A stretch of 64,000 nt of DNA from the NCBI GenBank assembly GCA_963765495.1, contig CAVXWP010000004.1, positions 128,001 through 192,000 on the forward strand. The letters run 5' to 3'. Source of the stretch: Blastocatellia bacterium. GTDB lineage: Bacteria; Acidobacteriota; Blastocatellia; UBA7656. This document shows, one piece after another, positions 1,378-21,398 of this stretch. The notes beneath the pieces were generated by a model. The model saw nothing but the letters and a program-made list of their open reading frames with translations, did not search any database and was not told the origin of the DNA. A program made the position numbers and the translations under genes. Each line of letters starts with the position of its first letter. The stretch's first letter is position 1.

Positions 1378-1381
1378 AGAA

Positions 1382-5425: not shown

Positions 5426-5832
5426 GTTCGCTTGTCCTCCAAAAGGTAAAACGGGTAGACGAGGTTATAAAATGTATTCGTGGTCCGAACGCGGTAATTG
5501 ATCTCGATAAGCAAACGGCCCTGCGACTGGTCTGCGCTTACGCTGACTGTGATCCTGTCTATTCTGGGCTCCCAGGTGATAAGCGCTTCTTCCACGCGAT
5601 GACGCGCAAGCGCCATCGTAGTCGTGTTTATCGGCTCGAAGGCGAGCGCGTTCAAATCCGCGCCAAAATCCGGGCGCATAAGGCGCTCGCCTCGAGCCGT
5701 CCCCAGAATAATCATGATGGCCTGTTGAATGTCTTCGCCGTCGTCGGCAAGCGCAAGTTCGCCCGTCGAGCCCAGTCCAATAGGAAAGCCCCAGCCCCGA
5801 CCAAGAAAAGCTTTGTCATCTGTTTCCGCCAT
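5422..5832 (-). CDS. GPW/gp25 family baseplate wedge protein (Afp9-like)
   Basis: FLGRGWGFP, IL.T..GER.MRPDFG, WEPRI and NLVYPFYL motifs. Confidence 0.95.
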   Translation of the reverse strand: MAETDDKAFLGRGWGFPIGLGSTGELALADDGEDIQQAIMIILGTARGERLMRPDFGADLNALAFEPINTTTMALARHRVEEALITWEPRIDRITVSVSADQSQGRLLIEINYRVRTTNTFYNLVYPFYLLEDKRT

Positions 5833-5863
5833 CCTCTGTAAATCACTCCTTCAGAATCAATAC

Positions 5864-6149
5864 TTTTTTGACAGGATTAGATTGGATTGAACAAGAATCT
5901 TGTCTAAATCACTCCGCAAGAGATTGGTACAAATGAGTGTGAATGAAATGCATCTCGGAATAGGCCGGGACGGACGCGGATCGGGCGGATTTTCGCGGAT
6001 TAGCTCATAGTGGGTCAGATCCGCGTTGATCCGCCCGATCCGCGTCCGTCCCGGCCTATTTCTGATTACCATACTTTGGAGTCTCATTTGTACCAATCTT
6101 TTGCATTCCGATTTAGTTCAATCTATTCCTGTTAATCCTGTTTAAAAAA
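5864..6149. repeat. Nested inverted-repeat (palindromic) element between PAAR and gp25
   Basis: Inner IR 5959-5990/6029-6060, middle IR 5916-5937/6083-6104, outer imperfect IR 5864-5892/6116-6149. Confidence 0.85.
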
Positions 6150-6199
6150 TTCATCTCTTCACACACACTTTCATCTATATCAATACCTTCCCGCTTGAT

Positions 6200-6481
6200 T
6201 CAGCCGCCGATCAGCACGGTGAATGCGCCTGCCACGATGGGCGCTCCGCAGCCTGATATATCGCCCAGCCGCAACGCGGGTCGCCCGCCGATAAAGACAT
6301 TTGCGCTGCCTTTTGCAAACGGCGTGGGCGGGTGCGGCCCGGCCACAGGCGGCATCGCGCAGGTGTGCAGGTCTCCAACAACAGCCGCGGGCTGCCCGCC
6401 TATCAATACATTCGCAACACCGGGACCGCTCACCATACCGGGATGGCCTGTCGGATCGTTGATTCGCGCTGCTGGCGGCAT
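6200..6481 (-). CDS. PAAR domain spike tip protein
   Basis: MPPAARIND, GQPAAVVGD and GRPALRLGD repeats with His/Cys metal ligands. Confidence 0.95.
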   Translation of the reverse strand: MPPAARINDPTGHPGMVSGPGVANVLIGGQPAAVVGDLHTCAMPPVAGPHPPTPFAKGSANVFIGGRPALRLGDISGCGAPIVAGAFTVLIGG

Positions 6482-6491
6482 ATTCGTCTCC

Positions 6492-7187
6492 TTATGAATT
6501 TATCTTCACCATTCCTGCGGTGATCGCCGCTTCCATTAAGGCTGTTAAGTCAATGTTGCTCGATAGCAGACTAATGTTTTTGAAATCGAGCGTCAGACTG
6601 GTTACTCCTACCTGCAGGGTGATACTTTTCTGATCGATGGTCAGGCTGTTTACCCCGACCTGAAGCGTGATCTTCAAGGGCGACATTATTTCTACCCCCG
6701 TGGGCGAGAGCCTGAGCGTCTGATGAGGCCCGGTAGGCAAAGACGGCATTGGCATAGTGACGGGAGCCGTAGGCGGCGTTTGAATCGTGATTGCGGGCGG
6801 CAGTTCTTCAATCACGATCTGATTTCCGGCAAACGTGCGTATAGCCCTGACCTGCTGAAGCGGCGACGGCAAAGGCGGAAGCGCAACGGCATTCCACAGA
6901 CTCCCCAGTATGTAAGGCGCGTTGATATCGCCGTGTTCGAAGGCGACAAGGACTTCGGCTCCGATGTCGGGGATAAAATATGTGCCGTGAAACAGCCCGG
7001 CCATCGGCACGGCCACCCGCGCCCACGGGCTCAAATCGAGGCTGTCCACAAAAGGCAGTTGCACCTGCACTCGCCCAAGCGACATCGGATCAACCGGATT
7101 GATCACTTTCCCGGTTGTTACGCCAAAGAATTTCTTTTGCCCTTCTTCGACAGAAGATTCGAGTCTCTCTAGGAGTTCTTCAATCAT
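6492..7187 (-). CDS. Spike protein (phage baseplate assembly protein V / gp5 OB-fold plus short beta-helix)
   Basis: DP..LGRVQV..P, WARV, P..G.EVLVAFEHGD...PY.LG.LWN. Confidence 0.92.
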   Translation of the reverse strand: MIEELLERLESSVEEGQKKFFGVTTGKVINPVDPMSLGRVQVQLPFVDSLDLSPWARVAVPMAGLFHGTYFIPDIGAEVLVAFEHGDINAPYILGSLWNAVALPPLPSPLQQVRAIRTFAGNQIVIEELPPAITIQTPPTAPVTMPMPSLPTGPHQTLRLSPTGVEIMSPLKITLQVGVNSLTIDQKSITLQVGVTSLTLDFKNISLLSSNIDLTALMEAAITAGMVKINS

Positions 7188-8371
7188 GGGATCAATTCCT
7201 TTCTAACCTGGAAACTTGTCCGGTAGCCGCTCGCGTCTATCGTATGATTGGCGCTCGACACTCGATAATCGCCGCTGAAATCGGGTCCCAACCCTTCGAG
7301 GCGAATCACCGCGCCCGAACGTATTCGCGGATCGCCTACGCAGGAGCCGCTCCCTACCAGACGGTTATTGAGTTTGGTGCGTAGTTCGTGCGCGATGGCC
7401 AGAGCGCTATTTGCAATGTCGGCCGGGCTTCCCACGGGCCGGTTGATGATCGTAAAGACCGGGTCGCCTGTTGCGCCCGCCGGGGCAGCCACGCCGGGAA
7501 GCACAGAGATTCCTACCATCTCGCGATCAAAGTCGTAGAAGACCGACACCAGAAAATCGAGCGGTATCTCGCGCAGGGTGAACTTCATCGCCACGCCTGC
7601 CGCATCGCCTACCGTGCTTATCTTGGGCGAGAATTCGAGCAGCGATTCTCCCCACGTCAAGGTGAGTCGCGGCTCGTATTCCTTGAGAAAACGAGTGAGG
7701 TAAAGTACATCTCCTTCGACGTGAAATTCCGCATCATAGGTGTCGGCTATCTCGGTCAGCAGTTCAAGATGAGACTGCCCTTTTTGTTTGCGCCCGGTCC
7801 CGTTGAATATATAGTTGACCGCTGCCATTGCCGTAGATGCCTCCACCACTATCGGCTCTATGAATGGAAGAAGCAGATTCTCTATGCTCAGGATCGAAGC
7901 GATAATAAAATCGGGCAAAGGGCCAAACCCTCGGCCATAACTCCCCTTTGACAGCCTGTGAAGATAATCGTGCGCGATGATGGTCATAGTCGGCATCCCG
8001 CCGTTTGGAAAGCTCGCTTCGACGCCGGTTATCTCTCCTGAAAACAGGTCCTCCAGCGGGTCGGGCGAATAACCCATCGCCACGGTCAATTTATTGTCAA
8101 TATCAAATGTTCCAGCGGGCAACAGACCCGCCGAACTGACGGGGCCGATCTTTACGCCGGTCGGAAACGGCTGGAACCCCAGCCCGCGTATGTGCTCCTG
8201 CAACCACCGCAAATCGGGATTGGCCAGCCCGATCTCTACGCGGTCGGAGGCGCTTAACCCCTGCTCGTAACGGACGCTCGTAACGGCGGACCGCACGGTG
8301 GCCGGAAGATCACGGTCGCTTATGCGAATTTTGAACTCCGGCACGTATACCGGATAGCGTGATGATTTCAT
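7184..8371 (-). CDS. Phage late control D / gp27-like baseplate hub (N-terminal half of a split VgrG)
   Basis: MGY..LF.GEIT..E..FP..G.P and GDP.IR.G..I.L.GLG..FSG.Y.V....H.I...GY.T.F motifs; coupled to the spike gene. Confidence 0.88.
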   Translation of the reverse strand: MKSSRYPVYVPEFKIRISDRDLPATVRSAVTSVRYEQGLSASDRVEIGLANPDLRWLQEHIRGLGFQPFPTGVKIGPVSSAGLLPAGTFDIDNKLTVAMGYSPDPLEDLFSGEITGVEASFPNGGMPTMTIIAHDYLHRLSKGSYGRGFGPLPDFIIASILSIENLLLPFIEPIVVEASTAMAAVNYIFNGTGRKQKGQSHLELLTEIADTYDAEFHVEGDVLYLTRFLKEYEPRLTLTWGESLLEFSPKISTVGDAAGVAMKFTLREIPLDFLVSVFYDFDREMVGISVLPGVAAPAGATGDPVFTIINRPVGSPADIANSALAIAHELRTKLNNRLVGSGSCVGDPRIRSGAVIRLEGLGPDFSGDYRVSSANHTIDASGYRTSFQVRKELIP

Positions 8372-9054
8372 CTCAGGATGTCTCCGGTTTCGGGATCGCG
8401 GAACGGCAGCCGGGGAACCAGCAACCGTTCGCCTACGGCCAGTTCTCTCGGATTACTTATCCCGTTACGCAATGCAATTGGACGCCAGAGCGCCGCGTTG
8501 CTGTAGACGCGGGCGGCGATGCCGGATAGCGTTTCGCCTTGACCTACCAGATATATCTGAGAATAATCGGCCGTTTCTCGCTTGACCTCTTTTGCTTCAA
8601 GATCGGCATTGGTGAACTCGTTGAAGGTGACTTGCAATCGAGCGCGCAGCGGCACGCCGTCCTGTCGAAACATGATAAAACGCTGAGTGACCTTGGCCAG
8701 CACGCAGGTAAAAGTCAAAGAACCCCACGTAAAGACCAGCACAGGCGGCGCGTGCGTCTCGGGATTGATGTCGAGCAGAGCCACTATGCGCCCGGTCAGA
8801 TCGCGCACATCCTGCCCGGCCTGATTTATCGTCTTGCTCCCGGATTTGTGCGATTCGTATGTGTCTACAAGCAACTCCATCTCTAACGATTGCAGGTTGC
8901 CGTGGATGAATTGCAGAAGCGGCGAGCGCAATCCGGGCACGGCCATCTGGGCAAAGTTGTTATCCTTGCTCAAACTGTACTCTTCGGGGTTGAAGAGGAC
9001 TTCGATCTTCTCACCCGTATCGTTGTTTGTGATGAGCGCCTTTTCGAGCGACAT
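8368..9054 (-). CDS. CIS tube-initiator protein with C-terminal LysM domain (Afp7-like)
   Basis: FNPEEY, PP...F.WG, F..DG.PLRA; LysM motif V..GETLS.IA..Y....WR.IA..N.I.NP. Confidence 0.92.
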   Translation of the reverse strand: MSLEKALITNNDTGEKIEVLFNPEEYSLSKDNNFAQMAVPGLRSPLLQFIHGNLQSLEMELLVDTYESHKSGSKTINQAGQDVRDLTGRIVALLDINPETHAPPVLVFTWGSLTFTCVLAKVTQRFIMFRQDGVPLRARLQVTFNEFTNADLEAKEVKRETADYSQIYLVGQGETLSGIAARVYSNAALWRPIALRNGISNPRELAVGERLLVPRLPFRDPETGDILR

Positions 9055-9057
9055 TGA

Positions 9058-9657
9058 TTAACGTCTCCCCAACCGCTCGCGGTGAGCGTTTATGCGGCGA
9101 TCAATCGCCGTGACTACTTGATCCGTAAGGCGGTTGATGTCAACCGCGCTCAACCCCGTATGCGAAACGGGCGATTGCGTCTTTGCGGTTCGGGCGGCAG
9201 GATCGGCTCCCGATGACGCGTCTTCACGAACCGAAGCAGGCAAAGCGGAACGCACCACCACCTTTTCGAGATCGCGTATCGGAATCGCATCCGCTTGAGC
9301 CGGGGCTTGAGGCTGAGACCGAACAAACGCCTCGCTTGTTTCAATTCTCGTCGTCCGTTTTAACACCCGCTCAACGATGGCTTCCTCCCTGAAGACACGC
9401 TCAAGCGCAGGCGCGAGTGCTTGTATCGCGCCGGGATCGGTAGCAAAACGAGGAGCGCCCGTCGCCTGACGATTGACAACCGGGCTGAGTCGCAATGCGA
9501 TATGAATATCGGTCTGCGACCTGTTGCGCGTGACAAGCGTCAATCCACGCGTGCGTAGAAACACAAGTGGCTCGAAGCAGGAATGGTGCCGGGTTATGCC
9601 TTGCGCGGCGCGGGTTATTCTAATGTCTCGAAAAACTGTCTTCAGTCTGTCTGTCAT
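9058..9657 (-). CDS. Hypothetical eCIS protein
   Basis: Coupled to both neighbours; C-terminal DINRLTDQV..AIDRR..A.RERLG motif of the kind seen in eCIS loci. Confidence 0.7.
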   Translation of the reverse strand: MTDRLKTVFRDIRITRAAQGITRHHSCFEPLVFLRTRGLTLVTRNRSQTDIHIALRLSPVVNRQATGAPRFATDPGAIQALAPALERVFREEAIVERVLKRTTRIETSEAFVRSQPQAPAQADAIPIRDLEKVVVRSALPASVREDASSGADPAARTAKTQSPVSHTGLSAVDINRLTDQVVTAIDRRINAHRERLGRR

Positions 9658-9813
9658 GACTCGTTCATCCGGTTATTGATACTTGAGATTTCTCTCACCC
9701 AGCGGCGGCGGTCTTCGTGTTCGAGCCCCATTACCTGATCGTGCGGCCAGTGAAAGTGATACGTGACAAAGGCTACCTCCTCATAAAGCTGGTCGAGGGG
9801 GTAGCCTAGGATT
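9654..9813 (-). CDS. DUF6760-like small protein, probably the -1 frameshift extension of the tail chaperone
   Basis: YP.DQLYEEVAF..YHFHW....M.LEH..RRRWV.EI..IN motif; similarity begins right at the GGGGGAAT run. Confidence 0.75.
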
Positions 9814-10168
9814 CCCCCACAGTAACCGCCTCCGGCTCGAAAGAGTGCTGACATTGAGGACACGTTACAGACTCGCGACCGCCTACTCTGTTGATCTCGT
9901 TGTAGAGGTCTTGCAGGTATTGGAAGTCGGCGGCAAACAACCCTTCGATAGTCTTTGGCGTTATCGGCTGCACTCCGCCGAGCCTTGTCACCACGCGCGC
10001 CAGTATGATGATGGAAAGGTAAGCGGGATTTTTTTGCACTCGCGGGTCTTTTGCCGGCAAGATTTCATCGGCGGCAGTCGCAAGCCTCATCACTCCTTCG
10101 CGGTGAAGATTCCCGTCTTCGTCGAGATACCCCATAGGCAGTGCGAACTCGTGTTCGGTTATAAACAT
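9806..10168 (-). CDS. Phage tail assembly chaperone-like protein
   Basis: TE..F.LP.GY.D..G.LHR.G.MRLATA.DEI...DPRV..NPAYL; C-terminal CPQC; lies directly after the tube gene. Confidence 0.85.
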   Translation of the reverse strand: MFITEHEFALPMGYLDEDGNLHREGVMRLATAADEILPAKDPRVQKNPAYLSIIILARVVTRLGGVQPITPKTIEGLFAADFQYLQDLYNEINRVGGRESVTCPQCQHSFEPEAVTVGES

Positions 10169-10170
10169 CG

Positions 10171-10608
10171 CTATGCCCTCTCTATTCCTTCGTGAGCCAG
10201 TTCCAGAGTCTCGATGGCAACGTCATTGCCTTCGGCGTTGAAATCAGGCCCATCCCATTTCGACGGCCAGGCGTTTACAAAATTCCAGCGCATCTTTTCG
10301 GTGCCGTGCCGGTCAAGCAGGATGATAGAGCCGTTCTTGCGCTGTACATCGCCCAGCACCGCCTGACGGTGCCAGTCGTACAAATCGTGGTCGTCGGTCA
10401 GCCCCCACTTGAGCGTGATGTTGCTGTATTTGGTCATGCCCGGAAGCTTGCGAGGCGTAGTATTTTCTCCACCCTCGCGATGCTCGACGACATCAATAGT
10501 GGAGTCGAAACCGCTCACCTGTTGAAAGGCCGCTCGCGTGATTCCGTCAATCTCTACCAGAAAATTGTAATTGCCGTAAGGATCGTTTCGTTGTCCCGTT
10601 TGTGGCAT
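10171..10608 (-). CDS. Tail tube protein (T4 gp19-like)
   Basis: DPY..YNF.VEIDG, KLPG..KY.NITLK.G, W.F.NAWP.KW.GP, IE.LEL.HEG. Confidence 0.96.
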   Translation of the reverse strand: MPQTGQRNDPYGNYNFLVEIDGITRAAFQQVSGFDSTIDVVEHREGGENTTPRKLPGMTKYSNITLKWGLTDDHDLYDWHRQAVLGDVQRKNGSIILLDRHGTEKMRWNFVNAWPSKWDGPDFNAEGNDVAIETLELAHEGIERA

Positions 10609-10626
10609 GATCGCCTCCTTTCAAAT

Positions 10627-12606
10627 CTATCCTTCGGTCACCTCTGAATCGCCCTGCCATATTCCTATGCGCACGATTATGAACTCAGCCGGGTAAGTGG
10701 GGCGCACGCCGATCTCGATGTAGAGGCGACCAAGCGCAAGCGTTGAAGGCGGATTGAGCGCCTCGTCTATGCGCACATAAAATGCCTTGTTTGCGGTCTC
10801 GCCAAACAGCGCCCCGTCTCTCCATACGCGGGTGAGAAATTCCGTGATCGTTCGCTTCAGTTTTTGCCACAGCGCGAGGTTGTTCGGCTCGAAAACTGCC
10901 CAGTTTATGCCTTCCTGAATCGACTCTTCGAGAAAGAGGAATAGCCGTCTGATGTTGACGTATTGCCAGTTCCTGTCTGTGGCCGTGGTCCTCGCGCCCC
11001 AGACCATCGGCTGCGCCTGTTCGGGAAAGACGCGCAACACATTTATGCCCAACAGATTGAGCGGGCCTTGCTCTTCATTCGTCAGTCGCCGCTCAAGCCC
11101 GAGCGAGCCCCGGATGTTGGCGTTGGCCGGGGCCTTATGCACCCCTCGCTCGGAGTCTGTGCGGGCATAGATACCGGCCAGGTGGCCCGATGGAGGCCAC
11201 AACTCATCTTTGCCCGTCAGGGGATTGCGCGCCAGAATCCACGGGTAATAGAGCGCGGCAAAGCCTTTCTCTGATCGCACATCGCTGAACTGTTTTCTGA
11301 TGCCGTTACCCGGCGCGGAACCGATAATGGAATCCAGTATGGCAAAACGGTCCTGCATCGCCTCGCAATGCGCGATGATCGCCTGCTGCACGACCTTATC
11401 CGTGGCTCCGGGGATCGAGACAAGCGATACATCATCATATGCTTTGAGCAAATCCAGAAAGCCGTTCGGATCGACCCCTATATTGGCCCAGGCAGATGCG
11501 CGGTCGTCGCCCTGACCGCCCGCGAGATTATAAGTGCCTGCCGCCGGGCGAGGGTCGGCGGGCGCAGGTGAAGGCGGCGCGGGCGGGTCTGAAATCGTGA
11601 CGGTTTCAGAGGCAACATTTGTGGCCCAGTAACCTGGATGTTGCGGGTGCATCGAGAGTAATTCGAATGTCTCGCTTTGCCCCGTGGCCGCATCGCTGAT
11701 TATTAGATCGAATTCAAGCGAGGCGATTGTCGGCAGATCGCTCGCATCCTCAAGGCTATAAGTATGCTCCAGCGGCGCGGACAAGGTGACGGTATCGCCG
11801 CCGGATGTTTCAACCGTGCGGATTTCGCTGTCAGCGCCGAGCTTGACCTGCACCGCCGTTCCACGAGGCAGGGCTTGATTGAGCGAAATGGCCGAGGGCA
11901 CATCGACCCGGAAGACCTTTTGCCCGATGATCAGATCGGCCGTGCGGACCTTACCCCCGCCAAAGTTGACGTTCCCTTCGACGGGCGCGTTCAAGACTAT
12001 CGTGTCGGTTCCCTGCACGGCCTTCACAACGGCGGTCGCCGTATCGGATGCCTTGACAAGCATCACCCTGTCACCCGGAGCAAACCCGGCGGTGCTCGCC
12101 ACAGTAAGCTCCCGGCGGTCGGCAGAAAGCGCCGTCAATGTAGTCCCCGCTCGATGGGCCGAAAGACTTGTCTTCGCGCTTCCGGAATCGGCCAGCATCT
12201 TTGCGAGCCGGCTGCTATTGATAACCTGAACCGCTATCGAGTTGCCCGGGGGGCCTTCTTCGCGCGCTCTCGCCACAAGCGCAGGGTCTGGGGGTGAAGC
12301 CTGTCGGCTGTCGAGATCGGCAGAAGCCATCTCACCTGTGCCTGCGCGCACGACATAGCAAGCGGTTCCTCCATTGAGGAAGAAGCCATAGACGCCGGGC
12401 GCGAGATAACTGGCAGGCGTTTCGGCTATGAACCCGCCAAATGTGCCAACGAAGGCGTCCCAGCTCTGGATGAGAGTAGGTGTGCCTATCGGCCCTTTCG
12501 CAGCGGTGCCGATAAAGGCCGCCGTGCTTGTGCCTACGCCCTGAATCGGCGCGCCGGGAGCGAATTCTTCTATGTAAACGCCCGGAAAGGAAACCTGTAC
12601 TGCCAT
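10627..12606 (-). CDS. Contractile tail sheath protein
   Basis: PGVYIEE, PPSGH.AG.YAR.D..RGVHKAPAN, WGART, YVN.RRLF, WAVFEPN and PAEFI motifs. Confidence 0.97.
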   Translation of the reverse strand: MAVQVSFPGVYIEEFAPGAPIQGVGTSTAAFIGTAAKGPIGTPTLIQSWDAFVGTFGGFIAETPASYLAPGVYGFFLNGGTACYVVRAGTGEMASADLDSRQASPPDPALVARAREEGPPGNSIAVQVINSSRLAKMLADSGSAKTSLSAHRAGTTLTALSADRRELTVASTAGFAPGDRVMLVKASDTATAVVKAVQGTDTIVLNAPVEGNVNFGGGKVRTADLIIGQKVFRVDVPSAISLNQALPRGTAVQVKLGADSEIRTVETSGGDTVTLSAPLEHTYSLEDASDLPTIASLEFDLIISDAATGQSETFELLSMHPQHPGYWATNVASETVTISDPPAPPSPAPADPRPAAGTYNLAGGQGDDRASAWANIGVDPNGFLDLLKAYDDVSLVSIPGATDKVVQQAIIAHCEAMQDRFAILDSIIGSAPGNGIRKQFSDVRSEKGFAALYYPWILARNPLTGKDELWPPSGHLAGIYARTDSERGVHKAPANANIRGSLGLERRLTNEEQGPLNLLGINVLRVFPEQAQPMVWGARTTATDRNWQYVNIRRLFLFLEESIQEGINWAVFEPNNLALWQKLKRTITEFLTRVWRDGALFGETANKAFYVRIDEALNPPSTLALGRLYIEIGVRPTYPAEFIIVRIGIWQGDSEVTEG

Positions 12607-12666: not shown

Positions 12667-13608
12667 CTATTCAAACCGCAGATCATACTCGCCGCTTGGC
12701 GAGGGCACTTCTATCAATCGCGGCGGCGGCTCCTGAAACGCGCCCGCTCGCCAGCGCAGGCTATACTGGCCTGCCCGCAGCTTGTTGAATGTGTACTGGC
12801 CGAGCGCGTTTGTTTCGGTCGTCTGCAACGGCTTGCCGGTTGTAGTCTCAAGTTGAACCCACGCGCCCTGTACGGGCACGGGATCGGGGCCTGTGGCATC
12901 GAGTACGTGCCCGCCTATTTGAATCCACACTTCAGCCGTTTCGGGCAATCCGCTCTGGCGATACTCGGTTATGCGCGTAGTCACCATCGGTCCGCTGATC
13001 TCTGCCGGGGATGCGACAGGCAGAGTCACAATCAGGTAAATAGCCGGTTTCCACGGGTGTGACGACCCCATCGTATTCCAAAACTCCGCCAACTTTGGAA
13101 AACCTTCGACCGGCAGAACTTCTGCGGGCAATTCTTCATCGGCGATGAGATCGGGGAAACCCTGTGGAAGCGGGTCGGGCTCATATATCAACCGTGGCAC
13201 AAGCGAGTCATGGTGCATAAGCACACGCGTTGTTTCATAAAGCAGGGCATGTTCATCGAGCGTCGGTTCGATTTGCGGAGCAATGTCGGCGGGGCTCCAC
13301 GCCGTTATCAAATAATGACAATCAATGCGTTGCGGAGCGGGGGTCTCGATTACCACTCCGTTATTTATCTCGCGGGTCCGTTGGTTGGAGCGCAACTTTC
13401 GATTTTCTCTCAGATCAAACAGATAGGCGTTTAGCGCCATAGCGGGGAACCCGTTCACGGTCAGGCCAGCGACATATTGACGCCAGCCCTCATTGGGCGG
13501 TTGAAAGCGCACCTGGTCGTCAATCACATCCTGATTAGGAGCAGGCCGCAGCGATTGAACCTGTGACATGAACAGATGTCGCAATAGATTGTCGAGATGA
13601 TTGAGCAT
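12667..13608 (-). CDS. DUF4255/Pvc16-like cap/terminator protein with C-terminal carboxypeptidase-regulatory-like domain
   Basis: N.YL.DLRENR.LRSN, R.DCHYLITAW, W......KP...L.VT.P; C-terminal G.V.D.....V.GA.V...T...G.Y.F..L..G.Y.L. Confidence 0.88.
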   Translation of the reverse strand: MLNHLDNLLRHLFMSQVQSLRPAPNQDVIDDQVRFQPPNEGWRQYVAGLTVNGFPAMALNAYLFDLRENRKLRSNQRTREINNGVVIETPAPQRIDCHYLITAWSPADIAPQIEPTLDEHALLYETTRVLMHHDSLVPRLIYEPDPLPQGFPDLIADEELPAEVLPVEGFPKLAEFWNTMGSSHPWKPAIYLIVTLPVASPAEISGPMVTTRITEYRQSGLPETAEVWIQIGGHVLDATGPDPVPVQGAWVQLETTTGKPLQTTETNALGQYTFNKLRAGQYSLRWRAGAFQEPPPRLIEVPSPSGEYDLRFE

Positions 13609-13683
13609 ATACAAGACTCATCTGCCACACCTTTTTGAGTTCGACTCATCTGGATGCAGAATCGGGTGTGGGTTTCAGCCGGT

Positions 13684-14166
13684 TTATCCGGTGCGCCCGG
13701 TCTCGTAAATCAAGTGTCCAAGCTCCATCTCCTTAGCCAGATAATCAGAAAGCTGTTGCGCCTTTTCCTCTGACGGCGCATCCAGACCCAGCAGTTCTTT
13801 GGAATGCCATTCCCACAGACATCCCATCTCTTCCATCTTATTCATCACTTCATCAGGCGAACCGGGATGAGTCGTCTCTTTGAACCATACCCGGAAACTG
13901 TAGTGACCCGATTTCCAAACAATCTGCCGGATCAGGTATTGAGGCTCTCCCTCTGTAGTGGTTTCTACGTGATCGCCAAGGTCAAGGTCATAGATAAAAA
14001 ATGGTATGCAGCATATCTCGAAAAGGTTTCCGTTAAGCTTTCTGGCCCAGAGTTGTTCGAAGCGCCCTCCGGGCACGTCATCTTCAAGCCGGGCCATGAT
14101 GATGAAGTCGGCCCGATCACGCCAGACAGGATTCAGGTGAACAGCTATGTTCTCTTCATTAATCAT
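13684..14166 (-). CDS. DUF4265 domain protein, candidate immunity protein
   Basis: EQLWA......F.I..IPFF.Y.L.LGD.V and SGH..FRV motifs; starts 3 nt after the HNH toxin stop. Confidence 0.75.
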   Translation of the reverse strand: MINEENIAVHLNPVWRDRADFIIMARLEDDVPGGRFEQLWARKLNGNLFEICCIPFFIYDLDLGDHVETTTEGEPQYLIRQIVWKSGHYSFRVWFKETTHPGSPDEVMNKMEEMGCLWEWHSKELLGLDAPSEEKAQQLSDYLAKEMELGHLIYETGRTG

Positions 14167-14169
14167 TTA

Positions 14170-17100
14170 TCAAGGCTTCTTTCCAGCCAGACTTCGCAGC
14201 CAGTCCGGCCAGTGAAGAGGCGGCCACTGACCCGTATAACCGGCCGGTGGTGTCTTCGGATAAAAATCGTCCTGCTTTGAAGTATTGCAATGGTTGCAGG
14301 TAAGCTGCGCGTTTTGAATTGTCGCATCTCCGCCCTTTTCCCTCGGATACGCATGATCGACATCTGTAGCCGTTCCCGGACGAGCGCAATAGACGCAGGT
14401 CTTTGTGGGGTCCGCAGCAAAGGCCTGATCCTTTACCCTGTCTGAAAATTTCTGTTTGGCAGTCGGCCCGCCATGCGTTCCGGGTTTTATCGTGGGCCCC
14501 TTGATCTGCGCGACATTTATATGCAGATTGCGCAAATCCCCCTCATGCTGGTTCAGCTCATCTTGCAACCTGTCACGGTCGGCTGTTGCCTTTTGATATT
14601 CGTCTATGAGTGCTTTCTTCTTGTCCCCCCTGGCATTCCGTATCTGCCCCGACAGGGAGCCGACCTTTCCCTGAGCTTTGCCCAGTTTGGTTTTCTTGGA
14701 ATTTATTTCCGCCTTCTTCTGCTCAATCTTCTGATCGAGAGCCGCCAGTTTCTCATCGTGAGTCGGGCTCTTTGCCGGGGCGGCGGCGGGATGCGTTCCC
14801 TGCGCATGTGTACCGCCAGTCTGTTTAGCCGGGGAACCCTGCGCGGCGGGCGGGGCCGGTTTTGACGCAGCGCCGGAAGGCTTTCCTTGAGCTGCATGCG
14901 CGGGATGAGAAATCGGCGGCGCGCTGACCCCTTGAGCCGCAGAGGATGGTTTGCCAGGGCTTGCCGAAGCCGTTACAGGTTGCGTGGCAGGCGCGCCTGC
15001 CGGAGGGGCCGGATGGTAAACAGTCGGGCCGTGTGTTCCCGTCGCTGCCTGCTGAGATGCCTGGTTCTGCTGTCGCTGGGCCTCCAGGGCTGCCTCGGCT
15101 TCGGCTGCCTGTCTTTTTTGTCGGTACTCCAACCCGCGCTCGATCGGCGTTGCGGTTTTCTGCGCCGGTGCCGGTTTATCAGGGTGAACATCAGACGTAT
15201 GAAGAGGCGCTTTTTGGGGAGGCGCTGCGGCTGGCTTACCCGACATAGTATCGGCAGCCCCCTGTCTTTTTTGCCTATACTCCAACCCGCGTCCAATCGG
15301 TGTTGGAGGGGGAGGCGCAGCCGCCGGAGGCTGATTCACAGGCGCAGCGGCCGAGGACTGATTCACAGGCGCAGCGGTCGGTTTATCAGGATGAATATCG
15401 GCAGTCGGATGAACGGCATTTGCAGGCTGCGCGCCACTGGATGATGCGCGCCGATCACTCAATTTCGTTACCGGCTTTTGGGTCTTCAACTGCGGCCCCC
15501 TGCGACCCTTCGCATCACCTATGGAATGAACTGTTCCTCCCTTTGAAGCCGGCGCACCCTGTTGATTGGCTGCCGGGAGGTGGTCAGGAGCATTTGTTGA
15601 AGGGGCTGGCGCAATGTGCGTGCCAGAGGTCACAGAAGTCCCGCCTATCGCTCCGGCATCTGCCGGAGCAGGTTTTGCGGTACCAGCCCCCGTGTGCTCG
15701 CCCGATTGCAGCCCGGTGTCGGCAGGGGGCCTTGCAGGGGGCGAAGAAGGCGGCAGATCGGTATCAACCTTACCTTTAGCAGCCGGATCGGAAGCGTGCA
15801 TCTCCGTATCAACTTTACCTTTAGAAGCCGGGCCGGATTTGGGCTTTCCGGGTTGAGCAGAGGTGTGTCCGACCGGAGGGCCAGCTTTGGGTCCAAATGC
15901 CTTCTTCCCGGCGCTTATCCCCTTAGAAATGAGTTTGTCAATCAACTCGCTGGCAATTCTTTTGGCGATGGCTTGCGAAGCAAGATCAATCTCATCCGGG
16001 GTGCGGGCGTAAAGCGCTATATTTCCCGTCTTTCCAACCCATTCGGCAAGCTCCATGTATCTGGCTATTTGCATCGTCCCTTGAATGAGTTGACCAACAC
16101 CCGGAAGGCGTTTCCCGATCAGTTCTATTCCCTCCGAAATAAGTTGATTCAAGACCTCGCGCCCGATATTTTTCAGTCTGTCATCAAGGTCGGTTGCAAA
16201 AGCCCACGGCAGATATTTCACCGCATTGCGAACTGCGGTAACCAGATTCTCGTAATTTCGCTCAGGCTCGCCCTTCTGCTTGAGCGATTGTGAGATGATA
16301 AAGGCCACTCCTCCTTTAGCGCCCGCCGCCGAGGACAACTGCTCTTTCGCGGGCACGTATCCCGTTAATACCTTTGTTATATTTACTTCCCCTTCCCCGG
16401 CCTCGACTCCATTATCAACCCGGACGGCAGCATACATGCGTTGAGCGGTACTTGAGGACGCACTGCCGATCAGGCTGCCTCCGACAAAATAGGTGCCGGG
16501 CTTCATCGTCACAGTGCCTACATTAAGTGTTGATCCTGAAAAGTAGCCGGATCTATCGAGAAGATAAACTCGATTGCTCGTGACATAGTAAACCTGCTGT
16601 GTAGCGTCAAAGAGCGTCAGTTCGTCTTCGGCTACGGGCCAGGGTTTGGCGTCGTAGCGTTTCCCGAGCGCCTCGATTGCCTTCCCAACCGTCACCGCTT
16701 TCAACCGCGCCAGCCCGCCTTTGATCTCGCCTTTGCCTCCCTCTGAGATACCGAGTCTCTCGGCCTGCGTCTGCGGTTGAGCCTGGACATCAGTAGCGAT
16801 GGCCATGCCGGATGATTTTTGCTGAGCGGCCTTCTCCGGCGGAGGCTTCTTATCATCCTTCTTCTTATTGGCCTCCTCTTTTTTCGCGGCGATATGTTTC
16901 AGCAGTGCGCGTGATGTTTCCGGGTCCAGAACGCCGTCGACCTTTCTGCCGGTTGCCTTCATCATGTCTGTCTGAAATTCGGCAATCGCATCAATAAACG
17001 GTTTGGCGCTTTCAATCGCTTTATTATCATCTATAACTTTTATGTCGATTTTTTTATCGTCGCCGGTTTCTTTATATGTCTGGTTGGATTTCGTATCCTC

Positions 17101-17829
17101 CCATAATTTCCGCAGCTTTTCATCATAAGGCCAGCCCGGAGGGACCATTTTTCTGAAATGTGTTTCAAATGCTCTATTAGCCGTGAAGGCCGTCTTATAA
17201 AAATTCGGACTTCTTGTCGGCTTCTCCTTCAATGCCAGCCCCGGCGCGCTGTTTCCTGAAACCTGAACAACCCCGCTGCTCGATCTGACTCCATCGGCGG
17301 CTCTGTCGGCGCTTTGCTCGATTGAACTTGTGGCAGGCATTGCCCGATGGTTTGCGCCTCCCCTGGATTGCTGAACAACGTGCGCCAGTTCATGCGCCAG
17401 CAGATGCCTTCCGCTGTCGGTCTCAGGAAGGTACTGCCCGGGGCCAAAAACAACGTCATTGCCTATCGTATATGCATAGGCGTTTATAGCCTCGGCAGAT
17501 CTTTCTGCTTTATGACCCGTGTGGATGCGCACTCGGCTAAAGTCCTGATCAAAGCGTGACTCCATATAACTTTGAGTCCTCGAGTCAATCGGCTGCCCGG
17601 TGCTGTTCAAACCATTCAGGGCAAGGGGTAATAGCAGACGCGAACGGGCCGTTTCGCCAGAAGCGCCAGGAGCAACGAGGTCTGCAAACGCTCGATTGCT
17701 CAGAGCCAGTTGCTCGGCTTGAATGTTCGTATGCGCAACAGACCGAGATTGTGGCGGCCCCGCCGCACGGTGTTTACTTTTCTCTCCGGCGGCTTCCGCT
17801 TTCGAGGATTTTGATGATTGCCCAGACAT
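14170..17829 (-). CDS. DUF4157 (eCIS core) protein with PG-binding-like motif, Pro/Ala linker, coiled coil and C-terminal HNH endonuclease; candidate eCIS toxin
   Basis: G.P......MESRF..DFS.VRIH..A.AYT.G..V.F..G.Y...LLAHELAHVVQQ; C-terminal CVYC..DVDH..P...GG.....N.Q..CNHCN..K. Confidence 0.9.
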   Translation of the reverse strand: MSGQSSKSSKAEAAGEKSKHRAAGPPQSRSVAHTNIQAEQLALSNRAFADLVAPGASGETARSRLLLPLALNGLNSTGQPIDSRTQSYMESRFDQDFSRVRIHTGHKAERSAEAINAYAYTIGNDVVFGPGQYLPETDSGRHLLAHELAHVVQQSRGGANHRAMPATSSIEQSADRAADGVRSSSGVVQVSGNSAPGLALKEKPTRSPNFYKTAFTANRAFETHFRKMVPPGWPYDEKLRKLWEDTKSNQTYKETGDDKKIDIKVIDDNKAIESAKPFIDAIAEFQTDMMKATGRKVDGVLDPETSRALLKHIAAKKEEANKKKDDKKPPPEKAAQQKSSGMAIATDVQAQPQTQAERLGISEGGKGEIKGGLARLKAVTVGKAIEALGKRYDAKPWPVAEDELTLFDATQQVYYVTSNRVYLLDRSGYFSGSTLNVGTVTMKPGTYFVGGSLIGSASSSTAQRMYAAVRVDNGVEAGEGEVNITKVLTGYVPAKEQLSSAAGAKGGVAFIISQSLKQKGEPERNYENLVTAVRNAVKYLPWAFATDLDDRLKNIGREVLNQLISEGIELIGKRLPGVGQLIQGTMQIARYMELAEWVGKTGNIALYARTPDEIDLASQAIAKRIASELIDKLISKGISAGKKAFGPKAGPPVGHTSAQPGKPKSGPASKGKVDTEMHASDPAAKGKVDTDLPPSSPPARPPADTGLQSGEHTGAGTAKPAPADAGAIGGTSVTSGTHIAPAPSTNAPDHLPAANQQGAPASKGGTVHSIGDAKGRRGPQLKTQKPVTKLSDRRASSSGAQPANAVHPTADIHPDKPTAAPVNQSSAAAPVNQPPAAAPPPPTPIGRGLEYRQKRQGAADTMSGKPAAAPPQKAPLHTSDVHPDKPAPAQKTATPIERGLEYRQKRQAAEAEAALEAQRQQNQASQQAATGTHGPTVYHPAPPAGAPATQPVTASASPGKPSSAAQGVSAPPISHPAHAAQGKPSGAASKPAPPAAQGSPAKQTGGTHAQGTHPAAAPAKSPTHDEKLAALDQKIEQKKAEINSKKTKLGKAQGKVGSLSGQIRNARGDKKKALIDEYQKATADRDRLQDELNQHEGDLRNLHINVAQIKGPTIKPGTHGGPTAKQKFSDRVKDQAFAADPTKTCVYCARPGTATDVDHAYPREKGGDATIQNAQLTCNHCNTSKQDDFYPKTPPAGYTGQWPPLHWPDWLRSLAGKKP

Positions 17830-20453: not shown

Positions 20454-21398
20454 TCAGGAGACTCCTTTGTCGATCTGTTCATTTAAAGAATTATTTGGAG
20501 GAGGGAAGGTGGATTGTGTCTGCTGTTGAATTTCAACCAGTAAATCCTGAAGCTGGCTGACGAGGTTAAGAGCCTTTGCAAATACGTTGGAAGTAACCGT
20601 GGTCCCGACAGAAGCCTGATCCATCGGCAATACAGGCGGATCGAAATGGTCTACACATATCTGGTCGTAAGCCTGGATCGTTCGCCTTTCAGGTTTGACG
20701 CCCAGGTCTTCCTCGAGCGCCTCCACACAACGCTGATACTGACGCAGGGCCAGGGTGCGATCACCTGCCAGATAATACAGTCGCATCATTTGCCTGTGCG
20801 TGCGCTCGCGCGCCCGGTCATATTGAAGTATGCGTAATCCATAAGCCAGCCCTATTTCATATTGGTGATGCTGTTCGCAATAATCCATCAACTTATCGAG
20901 CATGGAAAGATGCATGTTTTGGAAGCGGTCGCGCTCATACAGACACCATTCCCTGTAGGAACCTGCTAGCAGTTCATTTGTGTAGAGTTGAACCGCGAGA
21001 TGAATCGTCTGAATCTCTTGAGCGCCCAGTTCTTTCACCACGGGTTGTTGAATAAGCGAGAAGGCTTTCTCAAACACGTCAACATCAAGCCAGAGGTCTG
21101 ATCTGGGGTTGAGTTGCAACCATTCGGGGCTTACAAGCACGATTCGATTACTCTCGGATTTGGGTTCCAGCACGGCCTGAAGCTGCCAGAGCGCCTGACG
21201 CAGATACTTTTTCGCCTGAGATGTAGAACAGTCTTCCCACAACAGGGCGGCCAACGCTTCACGCGAGTGCGAGACATTTCTGTGCAGCAACAGGAAGCTG
21301 AATAATTCCTGCACCTTGCAGGAATCGAGACCCTCCAGGGCTATGTCATTGCGTAGTACGCGGAGCCTGCCAAACATATATATATTCAGTTTAGCCAA
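20454..21398 (-). CDS. SARP/AfsR-like transcriptional activator (winged helix plus BTAD)
   Basis: SRE.LA.LLW......A...LRQALW.L; W.DV..FE; E..HR..MRLY...G.R..AL.QY..C...L..DLGV.P; TTG start with GGAGG RBS. Confidence 0.9.
   Translation of the reverse strand: MAKLNIYMFGRLRVLRNDIALEGLDSCKVQELFSFLLLHRNVSHSREALAALLWEDCSTSQAKKYLRQALWQLQAVLEPKSESNRIVLVSPEWLQLNPRSDLWLDVDVFEKAFSLIQQPVVKELGAQEIQTIHLAVQLYTNELLAGSYREWCLYERDRFQNMHLSMLDKLMDYCEQHHQYEIGLAYGLRILQYDRARERTHRQMMRLYYLAGDRTLALRQYQRCVEALEEDLGVKPERRTIQAYDQICVDHFDPPVLPMDQASVGTTVTSNVFAKALNLVSQLQDLLVEIQQQTQSTFPPPNNSLNEQIDKGVS

Follow-up and report, generated by a model that had tools for sequence, protein, structure and literature searches.

Gene content of the eCIS locus

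The window, i.e. the whole 64,000-nt stretch of DNA analysed here, contains an Afp/PVC-type eCIS (a phage-tail-like injection machine) of a soil acidobacterium with a single cargo gene (Table 1). This gene, P0001, starts 65 bp after the gene for the eCIS AAA ATPase, orthologues of which (44-49% identity) are present in genomes of the same family. It is followed by P0002, which encodes a DUF4265 protein, and 69 bp further downstream by the gene for a Pvc16-type cap. At the P0001-P0002 junction (...CCT TGA TAA ATG...) the gap of 3 nt is a second stop codon. On the minus strand we found no terminator-like site from the ATPase gene to the cap gene and one after the BTAD gene (20459-20444, minus strand), the regional counts of such sites being not above chance. 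Outside the window the operon goes on with genes for Tail_P2_I and Ig-like domain proteins (Big_1, Big_5), and it contains no other DUF4157 gene; the Ig-like domains beyond the baseplate are uninformative on the target. A first-pass annotation had described a 1219-aa DUF4157-HNH reading frame with a 160-aa DUF4265-like one 3 nt later, located between ATPase and cap, as well as the motifs HELAH and CVYC..DVDH..N..CNHCN (zinc-binding). Both reading frames and their domains were confirmed, the location is borne out by the Pfam matches of the flanking genes, and the motifs are present in the translation.

Table 1. Features of the eCIS locus, with positions in the window
Feature	Position	Strand	Evidence
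BTAD-domain transcriptional activator, head of eCIS cluster	20454..21398	-	PF03704 BTAD, E 1.3e-16
eCIS AAA+ ATPase (Pvc15-like), 747 aa	17895..20138	-	PF22977 WHD, E 6.2e-35; PF00004 AAA, E 1.5e-28
P0001, DUF4157-linker-HNH polymorphic cargo toxin (predicted), 1219 aa	14170..17829	-	ORF and Pfam
P0001 aa 1-70, basic low-complexity N-terminus, putative eCIS packaging signal	17620..17829	-	pI 10.4
P0001 aa 80-157, DUF4157 / eCIS_core / PVC-metallopeptidase domain	17359..17592	-	PF13699, E 5.7e-32
P0001 aa 200-650, region without family match	15880..17232	-	Pfam and NCBIfam scans
P0001 aa 651-1019, Ala/Pro/Gly-rich linker with internal duplicated segment	14773..15879	-	A 20%, P 16%, G 10%
P0001 aa 1020-1103, charged helical (putatively coiled-coil-like) pre-toxin segment	14521..14772	-	weak SMC-like and Kre28 matches
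P0001 aa 1104-1210, HNH (beta-beta-alpha-Me) nuclease toxin module (predicted)	14200..14520	-	PF01844; IKPG..GGPTA..CxxC..DH..N..CxxCN..SK..FP..PPxGYxGxWPP
P0002, DUF4265 protein, 160 aa, proposed cognate immunity protein	13684..14166	-	PF14085
eCIS cap / tail terminator (Pvc16_N and CarboxypepD_reg domains)	12667..13614	-	PF14065, E 9.9e-21
eCIS structural genes, whole block	1..12606	-	domain matches
Sheath	10627-12606	-	eCIS structural block
Tube	10171-10608	-	eCIS structural block
LysM tube-like	8368-9054	-	eCIS structural block
VgrG-related	7184-8371	-	eCIS structural block
Spike OB	6492-7187	-	eCIS structural block
gp25	5422-5832	-	eCIS structural block
Baseplate J	1382-5425	-	eCIS structural block
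Second baseplate gene	runs off window start	-	eCIS structural block

The genes found between ATPase and cap vary among 10 related eCIS loci, comprising 0-2 DUF4157 genes and differing small genes (HEAT, CxxCxxCC, unknown). As none of these 10 loci carries the HNH and DUF4265 cassette, the DUF4157-HNH fusion is rare, a point against the toxin-immunity reading.

Domain structure of P0001 and P0002

The basic N-terminus of P0001 is read as a putative packaging signal; the tube-lumen cargos Cgo1 and Cgo2 likewise have a disordered N-terminal domain ahead of DUF4157 (PMC8894135). In the domain that follows, the match to PF13699 (eCIS_core, the former DUF4157) scores 110 bits (cut-off 22), and HELAH is intact (aa 146-150, window 17380-17394; HELAHVVQ at aa 146-153, as read from the translation); an HExxHxxQ-E signature has been described for the PVC-metallopeptidase domain (PMC3482391). 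Residues 200-650 match no Pfam or NCBIfam family; the first ~120 of them also occur in some other DUF4157 proteins, with a BLASTP alignment to P0173 reaching ~aa 317. The linker contains EYRQKRQ twice (aa 850 and 901), and long linkers have been noted for DUF4157 toxins (PMC8213781). The pre-toxin segment, where the weak SMC-like and Kre28 matches span aa 1023-1151, is common to P0001 and P0342, the sole other DUF4157-HNH protein found (alignment aa 953-1207, 36% identity).

The C-terminal module matches PF01844 HNH at aa 1145-1187 (E 3.4e-9; score 37 bits, cut-off 21.4) and also PF14279 HNH_5. Its zinc-finger core reads C1145-x2-C1148...D1158-H1159...N1173...C1178-x2-C1181-N1182 in the translation (window 14284-14397), and in the alignment of the HNH clade (A2) C1148, D1158, H1159, N1173, C1178, C1181 and N1182 are invariant. 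The last metal-ligand position of the motif is Asn (N1182) and not His, which counts against the toxin-immunity reading. Searched against PDB sequences, the HNH profile found IscB (1.2e-8), Cas9 (2.6e-7) and Gme HNH (8.5e-7). Nearly all top structural matches of the AF2 model (pLDDT 91.8) are likewise HNH nucleases, at modest scores (VIA Z <= 5.7, Foldseek E >= 0.012).

P0002 matches PF14085 DUF4265 at aa 37-148 (E 2.7e-25; score 89 bits, cut-off 27). Since every Pfam score far exceeds its curated cut-off, the domain assignments of P0001 and P0002 are no chance pattern. The HNH module is basic (median pI 8.6, 22 sequences) and DUF4265 acidic (median pI 4.8, 26 sequences; P0002 4.7). The DUF4265 model (AF2, pLDDT 91) has a single clear structural relative, PDB 5ueb, with Foldseek E 1.4e-8, TM 0.71/0.80, VIA Z 15.2 (137 residues, rmsd 3.4) and a profile E of 0.0013. 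This entry, a hypothetical Neisseria gonorrhoeae protein from structural genomics titled 'novel crystal structure', resembles DUF4265 in fold, but the identity is only 16-19% and it has no published function; one paper connects its Tudor-like domain remotely to DUF2314 by HHsearch (PMC8466066).

Linkage of the HNH module and DUF4265 in other genomes

We examined 78 loci from other genomes, each with a gene for a DUF4265 homologue. At 31 of them a homologue of P0001 aa 1100-1219 ends just upstream on the same strand (tblastn; HMM E <= 8.2e-10), and 4 further loci hold weak HNH remnants. The remaining 43 have no HNH upstream, which counts against the toxin-immunity reading: DUF4265 often stands alone, and a lone copy may represent an orphaned immunity gene or serve another purpose. 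Among 30 upstream ORFs scanned at HNH-less loci 20 matched no Pfam family, and several encode housekeeping proteins (M20 peptidase, UvrA, SufB, ribosomal L19); elsewhere in this group DUF4265 adjoins an Imm1 (L022) or a Barstar (L032) gene.

In the opposite direction, 68 loci were found with the HNH-clade alignment, 55 of which fit the clade HMM (E <= 3.9e-17). DUF4265 is present in 53 of these 55, and in 50 its match begins 0-86 bp past the toxin ORF (exceptions: L129 and L162 without DUF4265; L134 at 2982 bp, L142 at 997 bp and L164 at 176 bp), while none of the 13 weaker HNH hits has it. Contigs outside the first set account for 35 of the 55 loci, 31 of them with an adjacent DUF4265. The genome to which the window belongs contains a single DUF4265 and a single clade HNH, adjoining each other. 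At several loci only 34-63-aa or frameshifted HNH tails precede an intact DUF4265, a pattern also seen at polymorphic toxin loci. Toxin and DUF4265 diverge in step, their pairwise identities being correlated (42 pairs; Mantel r 0.66, reached in 0 of 2000 permutations), a value inflated by shared ancestry.

All upstream proteins scanned (21 and 48 in two scans) have the HNH at the C-terminus. Among the 48, 19 match RHS_repeat, 3 PT-HINT and 1 Fil_haemagg_2 with PT-VENN (CdiA type); teneurin-like and SpvB/TcdB-like regions also occur, and DUF4157 is found in none. Among the 150 HNH-clade cluster representatives listed, only 2 have DUF4157. Members from many phyla share an HNH module of ~105 aa (34-58% identity to that of the window in alignment A2) with DUF4265 directly downstream, but at non-eCIS loci and behind Rhs/YD, HINT or filamentous haemagglutinin parts instead of DUF4157. 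Across phyla and delivery systems, the HNH module and DUF4265 are closely linked in both directions, and within the HNH clade this linkage is strict. The polymorphic-toxin organisation proposed at first pass holds; DUF4265, suggested there as the cognate antidote, behaves as the immunity gene of the module. The same annotation had asked whether C-terminal domains swap together with the downstream gene, and DUF4265 does travel with HNH across delivery systems.

DUF4265 has no known function, and chaperones in the vicinity of eCIS cargo have been a matter of speculation (Danov et al. 2024, PMC11297309). That DUF4265 helps to load the cargo as a chaperone or adaptor, like the T6SS adaptor proteins, and is not an inhibitor is highly improbable in our view: an adaptor should track the delivery domain, but DUF4265 follows the toxin domain under Rhs, CdiA, PT-HINT or DUF4157, and it also occurs toxin-less beside Imm1 and Barstar genes.

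Possible target of the proposed toxin

CdiA-type and Rhs proteins are classes known for interbacterial antagonism. The occurrence of the cassette on them argues against a reading which we regard as rather unlikely, namely that the same toxin and immunity protein belong to an eCIS aimed at eukaryotes (protists, fungi, invertebrates), with DUF4265 only protecting the producer. The toxin-less DUF4265 genes that other bacteria carry next to further immunity genes point in the same direction, being expected if bacteria are attacked with the toxin, and one related eCIS locus, in which a DUF4157-Tse3_N gene (Tse3-like muramidase N-domain) is followed by a HEAT gene, suggests bacterial targets in this lineage. 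However, the eCISs that have been characterised are directed at eukaryotic hosts, and immunity genes are reported to be missing for most eCIS toxins (PMC8213781). Moreover, the cargo would be made in the cytoplasm, where a DNase needs an inhibitor regardless of target; because it would endanger the producer before loading in any case, an immunity gene alone is no proof of an antibacterial role.

Cytoplasmic Streptomyces CIS are reported to work inside the producer. An eCIS of this kind, which the first-pass annotation had also raised, with DUF4265 as an antitoxin that on being lost would set the nuclease free to bring about regulated cell death, would agree with toxin and antidote appearing co-transcribed (3-nt gap, no terminator-like site from ATPase to cap). 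We consider it very unlikely, since the other carriers of the cassette are secreted or surface toxins and the locus has a full eCIS gene set (ATPase, cap, baseplate) with Ig-like domains in the post-baseplate genes.

Comparison with known systems and proposed mechanism

Colicins E7 and E9 carry an HNH-type DNase at the C-terminus of a modular toxin, which is inhibited by the small acidic Im7/Im9, the product of the gene immediately behind it. P0001/P0002 resemble them in the C-terminal warhead (a predicted DNase here) and the small acidic downstream product, but the fold of Im7/Im9 is unrelated to DUF4265. The colicin DNases are of the H-N-H type without a four-Cys zinc finger and are delivered via receptor and translocon, not by injection.

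DUF4157 ('PVC-metallopeptidase') with variable toxins, including PVC-exported HNH clades, was tabulated by Zhang et al. 2012 (PMC3482391). Those toxins and P0001 share an N-terminal HExxHxxQ peptidase, a variable C-terminal toxin and an adjoining PVC-type AAA ATPase, and by its description their 'NGO1392-like HNH' (CxxC, DH, CxxC) resembles the P0001 module with its two CxxC pairs and DH. Many PVC toxins have no adjacent immunity gene, whereas P0001 has one; the immunity proteins given for the HNH clades are Imm-SuFu, Imm-SUKH, Imm13, 14, 18, 21, 24, 33 and 38, and the accessible text does not mention DUF4265 (PMC3482391). DUF4157 proteins of P0001-like layout fill the AlgoCIS tube lumen (Xu et al. 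2022, PMC8894135). Cgo1 and Cgo2 of Algoriphagus machipongonensis are like P0001 in their disordered N-terminus, DUF4157, variable C-terminus and position inside a CIS cluster, and Cgo1 is toxic in E. coli; their C-terminal domains differ, P0001 having a recognisable HNH and a dedicated downstream gene, and the word 'immunity' is absent from the accessible main text (PMC8894135). Geller et al. 2021 showed eCIS-linked toxin-immunity pairs at the bench and took the EAT5 pair as support for antibacterial eCIS (PMC8213781). EAT5 (RES-like) and its upstream immunity gene are, like P0001/P0002, genetically tied to an eCIS operon, but the toxin is NADase-like, immunity protein and gene order are different, and that pair was bench-tested whereas ours is known from its genes (PMC8213781).

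We infer nuclease activity, inhibition by binding and particle loading, as well as the kind of target cell, in the following course. The basic, disordered N-terminus and DUF4157 would mark P0001 for the eCIS route, and between DUF4157 and the ~105-residue C-terminal HNH nuclease 'warhead' lies a very long spacer. In the producer cytoplasm, the acidic DUF4265 would bind the basic HNH domain and keep it from cutting DNA up to the point at which the ATPase passes the toxin into the tube, the immunity protein being left behind at loading. After injection, the HNH domain would cut the target DNA, possibly once freed by the DUF4157 peptidase.

The general design has been published, both for variable toxins joined to DUF4157 (Zhang 2012) and for toxin-immunity pairs of eCIS loci (Geller 2021), and the novelty of the first-pass reading was overstated in respect of both DUF4157-toxin fusions (PMC3482391) and such pairs (PMC8213781); we found no published account that makes DUF4265 the immunity family for this clade of HNH domains. 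Taken together, domain content, gene order and linkage indicate that the eCIS cargo is probably a DUF4157-routed polymorphic HNH toxin whose warhead forms one mobile toxin-immunity cassette with the downstream DUF4265. Judged from sequence, DUF4265 is very probably the antidote of this HNH toxin type.

Gene pair and its eCIS cluster

A DUF4157-HNH nuclease followed by a DUF4265 gene, read as an effector-immunity pair, had been proposed in the first-pass annotation, and both reading frames are present at exactly the positions given there (Table), the DUF4265 gene (P0002) beginning 3 nt after the gene for the DUF4157-linker-HNH protein (P0001), with the junction CCT TGA TAA ATG. Pfam matches above the cut-offs bear out the proposed N-terminal DUF4157 with HELAH, the C-terminal HNH domain and the DUF4265 assignment, as well as the position of the pair between an ATPase and a cap gene: a WHD+AAA ATPase gene, itself preceded by a BTAD regulator gene, lies upstream and a Pvc16_N cap gene downstream. 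According to Pfam and NCBIfam, the minus strand of window 1-20138 carries co-directional genes for a sheath, tube, spike, gp25, baseplate J, Pvc16-type cap and AAA ATPase, which identify it as a cluster for an Afp/PVC-type extracellular contractile injection system (eCIS); the order after the cap is sheath, tube, LysM tube-like, VgrG-related, spike, gp25 and baseplate J. The operon extends past the window start with a second baseplate gene, a Tail_P2_I gene and two genes with Ig-like domains, after which comes a histidine kinase gene, and no second DUF4157 gene was found within the operon, the stretch beyond the window start included. The best protein matches of the ATPase are spread across phyla and give no usable taxonomic placement, whereas GyrB of this genome has mostly Acidobacteriota relatives (Bryobacterales, Acidobacteriaceae and Terriglobales), with up to 70% identity in the best segment.

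The GC3 of the cassette (HNH module plus DUF4265 gene) is 0.55, near that of the rest of P0001 (0.52-0.64) and below that of the structural genes (0.61-0.67), a difference too weak for dating any acquisition. A promoter and terminator scan of the region returned site counts at chance level. The host genome contains exactly one DUF4265 gene and exactly one HNH domain of the clade described below, and the two lie side by side. Elsewhere in this genome we observed a second contractile-sheath locus (contig C3, ~211-234 kb), which encodes two sheath-like proteins and a separate AAA ATPase sharing 39% identity with that of the window. A second, short DUF4157 reading frame of 176 aa lies on contig C8 (905603-905842). 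The Pvc16-type cap in the window has an extra C-terminal CarboxypepD_reg/prealbumin-like domain, and so do the cap proteins at most of the related loci.

Coordinates of the gene pair, the cap gene and the regions of P0001
Feature	Position	Evidence or remark
P0001, DUF4157-linker-HNH protein	window 14170-17829(-)	1219 aa
P0002, DUF4265 protein	window 13684-14166(-)	160 aa
Pvc16-type cap	window 12667-13614	
Basic low-complexity N-terminus	aa 1-70	pI 10.4
DUF4157/eCIS_core	aa 80-157	PF13699, E 5.7e-32, 110 bits (cut-off 22)
HELAHVVQ (intact HExxHxxQ)	aa 146-153 (HELAH, aa 146-150)	read from translation
Similarity to other DUF4157 proteins	continues to ~aa 317	sequence alignment
Ala/Pro/Gly-rich linker with internal duplication	aa 651-1019 (window 14773-15879)	
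Charged helical pre-toxin stretch	aa 1020-1103	
HNH toxin module	aa 1104-1210	bounds from alignment with relatives

Anatomy of P0001 and assignment of the HNH nuclease

P0001 has the features of a DUF4157 cargo: its PF13699 domain scores above the cut-off, retains HExxHxxQ, lies N-terminally and is followed by a variable C-terminal domain. At the C-termini of 119 DUF4157 relatives, a wide variety of Pfam domains is found. The stretch of aa ~340-650 gave no family match in Pfam or NCBIfam. Within the linker, the duplicated segment recurs after ~50-70 residues (EYRQKRQ at aa 850 and 901, DKP at aa 815 and 884). In the alignment with relatives, the toxin module starts at IKPG..GGPTA, ~35 residues ahead of the first CxxC, and ends in a conserved FP..PPxGYxGxWPP tail.

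By family, residues and fold, the C-terminal domain belongs to the HNH/EndoVII (beta-beta-alpha-Me) nucleases and is predicted to cleave DNA in a metal-dependent manner. It matches PF01844 HNH (aa 1145-1187; E 3.4e-9, 37.2 bits, cut-off 21.4) and also PF14279 HNH_5, and its core reads C1145-x2-C1148 ... D1158-H1159 ... N1173 ... C1178-x2-C1181-N1182. Across 22 clade members D1158, H1159, N1173 and N1182 are invariant, and of the four cysteines of the structural zinc site (two CxxC pairs, C1145/C1148 and C1178/C1181) only C1145 falls just short of invariance. The profile of the module hits IscB and Cas9 in their HNH domains, as well as the Gme HNH nicking enzyme (E 1e-8 to 1e-6). Most of the top structural matches of the AF2 model (pLDDT 91.8) are HNH nucleases, with modest scores (Foldseek E >= 0.012; VIA Z 5.7-4.5). 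P0001 is a possible member of the NGO1392-like HNH toxin clade of Zhang et al. 2012 (signature CxxC, DH, CxxC, Q): it has CxxC, DH and CxxC, and Q1186 follows CNTSK, but in the alignment of the present HNH clade most members have G at that position.

A full HMM search yielded 173 cluster representatives of the HNH clade at E <= 1e-30, and in nearly all of the 150 listed, which are proteins of 93-3045 aa, the module forms the very end of the C-terminus. The idea that the HNH is a homing or restriction-type nuclease fused by chance was rejected on account of this near-constant position among the 150 listed and of the presence of the clade on known toxin carriers.

Reciprocal linkage of HNH toxins and DUF4265

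Comparative genomics gives good support to P0001 and P0002 being a toxin-immunity pair. Starting from the toxin, 68 loci were found with the HNH-clade alignment, and 55 of them reach E <= 3.9e-17 against the clade HMM. DUF4265 is present at 53 of these 55 loci and starts 0-86 bp after the toxin reading frame in 50 of the 55, with more distant copies at L134, L142 and L164; DUF4265 was not found at any of the other 13 loci, whose HNH matches are weaker. Of the 55 clade loci, 35 lie on contigs absent from the set obtained with DUF4265, and 31 of these 35 have an adjacent DUF4265 gene. Toxins and DUF4265 proteins diverge in a correlated manner (42 pairs; Mantel r 0.66, none of 2000 permutations being as high), to which shared ancestry contributes, and the acidic DUF4265 family (median pI 4.8) contrasts in charge with the basic HNH module (median pI 8.6). 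Two strong clade members, in Pseudonocardia eucalypti (L129) and a Pyrinomonadaceae MAG (L162), have no DUF4265 within 4 kb; these toxins may use another immunity protein.

All 48 clade toxin reading frames that were scanned end in the HNH domain; RHS_repeat was found in 19 of them, PT-HINT in three and DUF4157 in none. One of the 48 is a CdiA-type carrier with haemagglutinin repeats and PT-VENN (L143; Pseudomonas reactans, NZ_JACAPG010000002.1) in which DUF4265 follows the HNH domain, so the cassette would also serve contact-dependent inhibition systems.

Starting from the other partner, we collected 78 loci with a DUF4265 homologue on contigs from one genome per species. In 31 of them the DUF4265 gene is closely preceded, in the same orientation, by the end of a homologue of P0001 aa 1100-1219, and four more show weak remnants. 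The DUF4157 region and the middle region of P0001 have no match at any of the 78. In each of the 21 upstream proteins scanned, HNH forms the C-terminal end, behind Rhs/YD, teneurin-like, SpvB/TcdB-like or PT-HINT bodies. Truncated (34-63 aa) or frameshifted HNH tails precede DUF4265 at eight loci (L024, L031, L048, L065, L067, L072, L075 and L080). For the loci lacking HNH, 30 upstream reading frames of at least 100 aa were scanned: we found Imm1 (L022), Barstar (L032), sub-threshold Imm11 (L064) and an Rhs protein with no detectable HNH (L070), the others belonging to six further, mostly housekeeping families or, in 20 of the 30, to no family. Judging from these upstream genes, DUF4265 is often an orphan and sometimes lies amid immunity genes. 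A metagenome scan with P0002 added 24 loci, none above 50% identity, with an HNH HMM match upstream in 12 and DUF4157 in none; closer homologues (P0003-P0008) are 58-72% identical.

The polymorphic-toxin organisation claimed in the first-pass annotation thus holds: one toxin module occurs on many delivery parts (DUF4157 in P0001 and in P0342, another DUF4157-HNH protein; Rhs, PT-HINT, CdiA-type and teneurin-like elsewhere), the putative immunity gene lies directly 3', and displaced toxin fragments and orphan immunity genes are found.

The DUF4265 family and its fold

P0002 belongs to PF14085 DUF4265 (E 2.7e-25, 89 bits, cut-off 27). Among 170 candidates 150 homologues were found at E <= 0.001, all 120 listed matching PF14085, and they occur in Actinomycetota, Chloroflexota, Planctomycetota, Pseudomonadota, Acidobacteriota and other phyla. 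The AF2 model (pLDDT 91) consists of two halves, the N-terminal one rich in beta structure and the second one ferredoxin/ACT-like. Only 5ueb, a Neisseria gonorrhoeae structure that is unpublished and labelled 'novel', is clearly related to the model (Foldseek E 1.4e-8; VIA Z 15.2, the next match having 9.3; profile E 0.0013); the other matches are generic ferredoxin/ACT-like ones to residues 86-160 (Z <= 9.3), and no known immunity protein appeared in the fold searches. In the ESM Atlas, P0002 retrieved only clusters named 'DUF4265 domain-containing protein', with no functional name. The Tudor-like domain of 5ueb is reported to have a remote HHsearch link to DUF2314 (PMC8466066), and DUF2314 is tabulated as Imm34 (Zhang et al. 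2012; PMC3482391). A complex prediction from the HNH-clade and DUF4265 alignments gave a score of 0.00 (mark 0.32), which speaks neither for nor against binding.

Rarity of the eCIS version and the ATPase-cap slot

Among the 150 listed clade representatives, only P0001 and P0342 have a DUF4157 HMM match. P0342 (1114 aa) was confirmed as DUF4157-HNH by Pfam and has the helical pre-toxin stretch and the HNH domain in common with P0001. A word-indexed search with P0001 aa 1100-1219 (30 candidates, proteins of 670-2134 aa) returned the query alone; it is uninformative, as Rhs proteins with the HNH module do exist.

A comparison with related genomes, covering 10 eCIS loci whose ATPases are 42-56% identical, shows that the ATPase-cap slot is variable. 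The cap directly follows the ATPase in three loci, five slots hold one or two DUF4157 genes (with C-termini of OmpA, Tse3_N or no known family) and the other two only CxxCxxCC or family-less genes; neither HNH nor DUF4265 occurs in any of the 10. The small genes after the DUF4157 genes differ as well (HEAT repeat, CxxCxxCC or no known family), so that the exchange of C-terminal domains together with the downstream gene, suggested earlier as a check on the pairing, is seen in these slots.

Among eCIS loci from the same bacterial family, one DUF4157 protein carries the N-domain of the T6SS muramidase Tse3 and is followed by a HEAT-repeat gene (L120:2975-5581 and L120:5437-6222; also L112:5067-5792), and a HEAT-repeat gene likewise comes after another DUF4157 gene; these may be further cargo-immunity pairs, directed against the bacterial cell wall. 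A CxxCxxCC gene (PF03692, putative zinc-/iron-chelating) is present in the slot of three of the 10 related loci (L112:5792-6535, L117:3675-4295 and L119:15208-15984).

Relation to previous work and implications

The architecture and the idea of an antibacterial eCIS cargo are already known from three studies. Zhang et al. 2012 (PMC3482391) defined the PVC-metallopeptidase, i.e. DUF4157, as the N-terminal part that stays constant among PVC-route polymorphic toxins, listed HNH clades for this route and described many such systems without adjacent immunity genes. Geller et al. 2021 (PMC8213781) named DUF4157 an eCIS core domain, reported linkers of > 1000 aa and validated eCIS toxin-immunity pairs, immunity genes not being found beside most antibacterial eCIS toxins. 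In Xu et al. 2022 (PMC8894135), the tube lumen is filled by DUF4157 proteins (Cgo1/Cgo2 only). We did not find DUF4265 as an immunity protein or PF14085 in the literature, the name DUF4265 being met only in an unrelated context and being absent from the accessible text of Zhang et al. 2012 (PMC3482391); supplementary tables of papers on eCISs and polymorphic toxins may list it. The one useful new assignment is DUF4265 as the probable immunity family of the zinc-finger HNH toxin clade, the overall design not being new.

A bacterial target of the candidate toxin is plausible. Somewhat short of an even chance, in our estimate, is the wider proposal that the eCIS is a true interbacterial weapon whose DNase and antidote cassette was drawn from a pool common to Rhs and CDI toxins, and that DUF4265 together with 5ueb represents an immunity fold that had not been recognised before and acts on a single zinc-finger HNH clade. 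If true, contact-dependent and free-particle injection systems would use the same toxin-immunity modules. The assignment gives the widespread DUF4265 a testable function, since such proteins would provide cognate immunity to a defined clade of HNH toxins. The locus also provides a clear case of a candidate eCIS cargo gene and its putative immunity gene side by side, and is therefore well suited for asking how the cell that makes an eCIS toxin withstands it and whether environmental eCISs are directed against bacteria.
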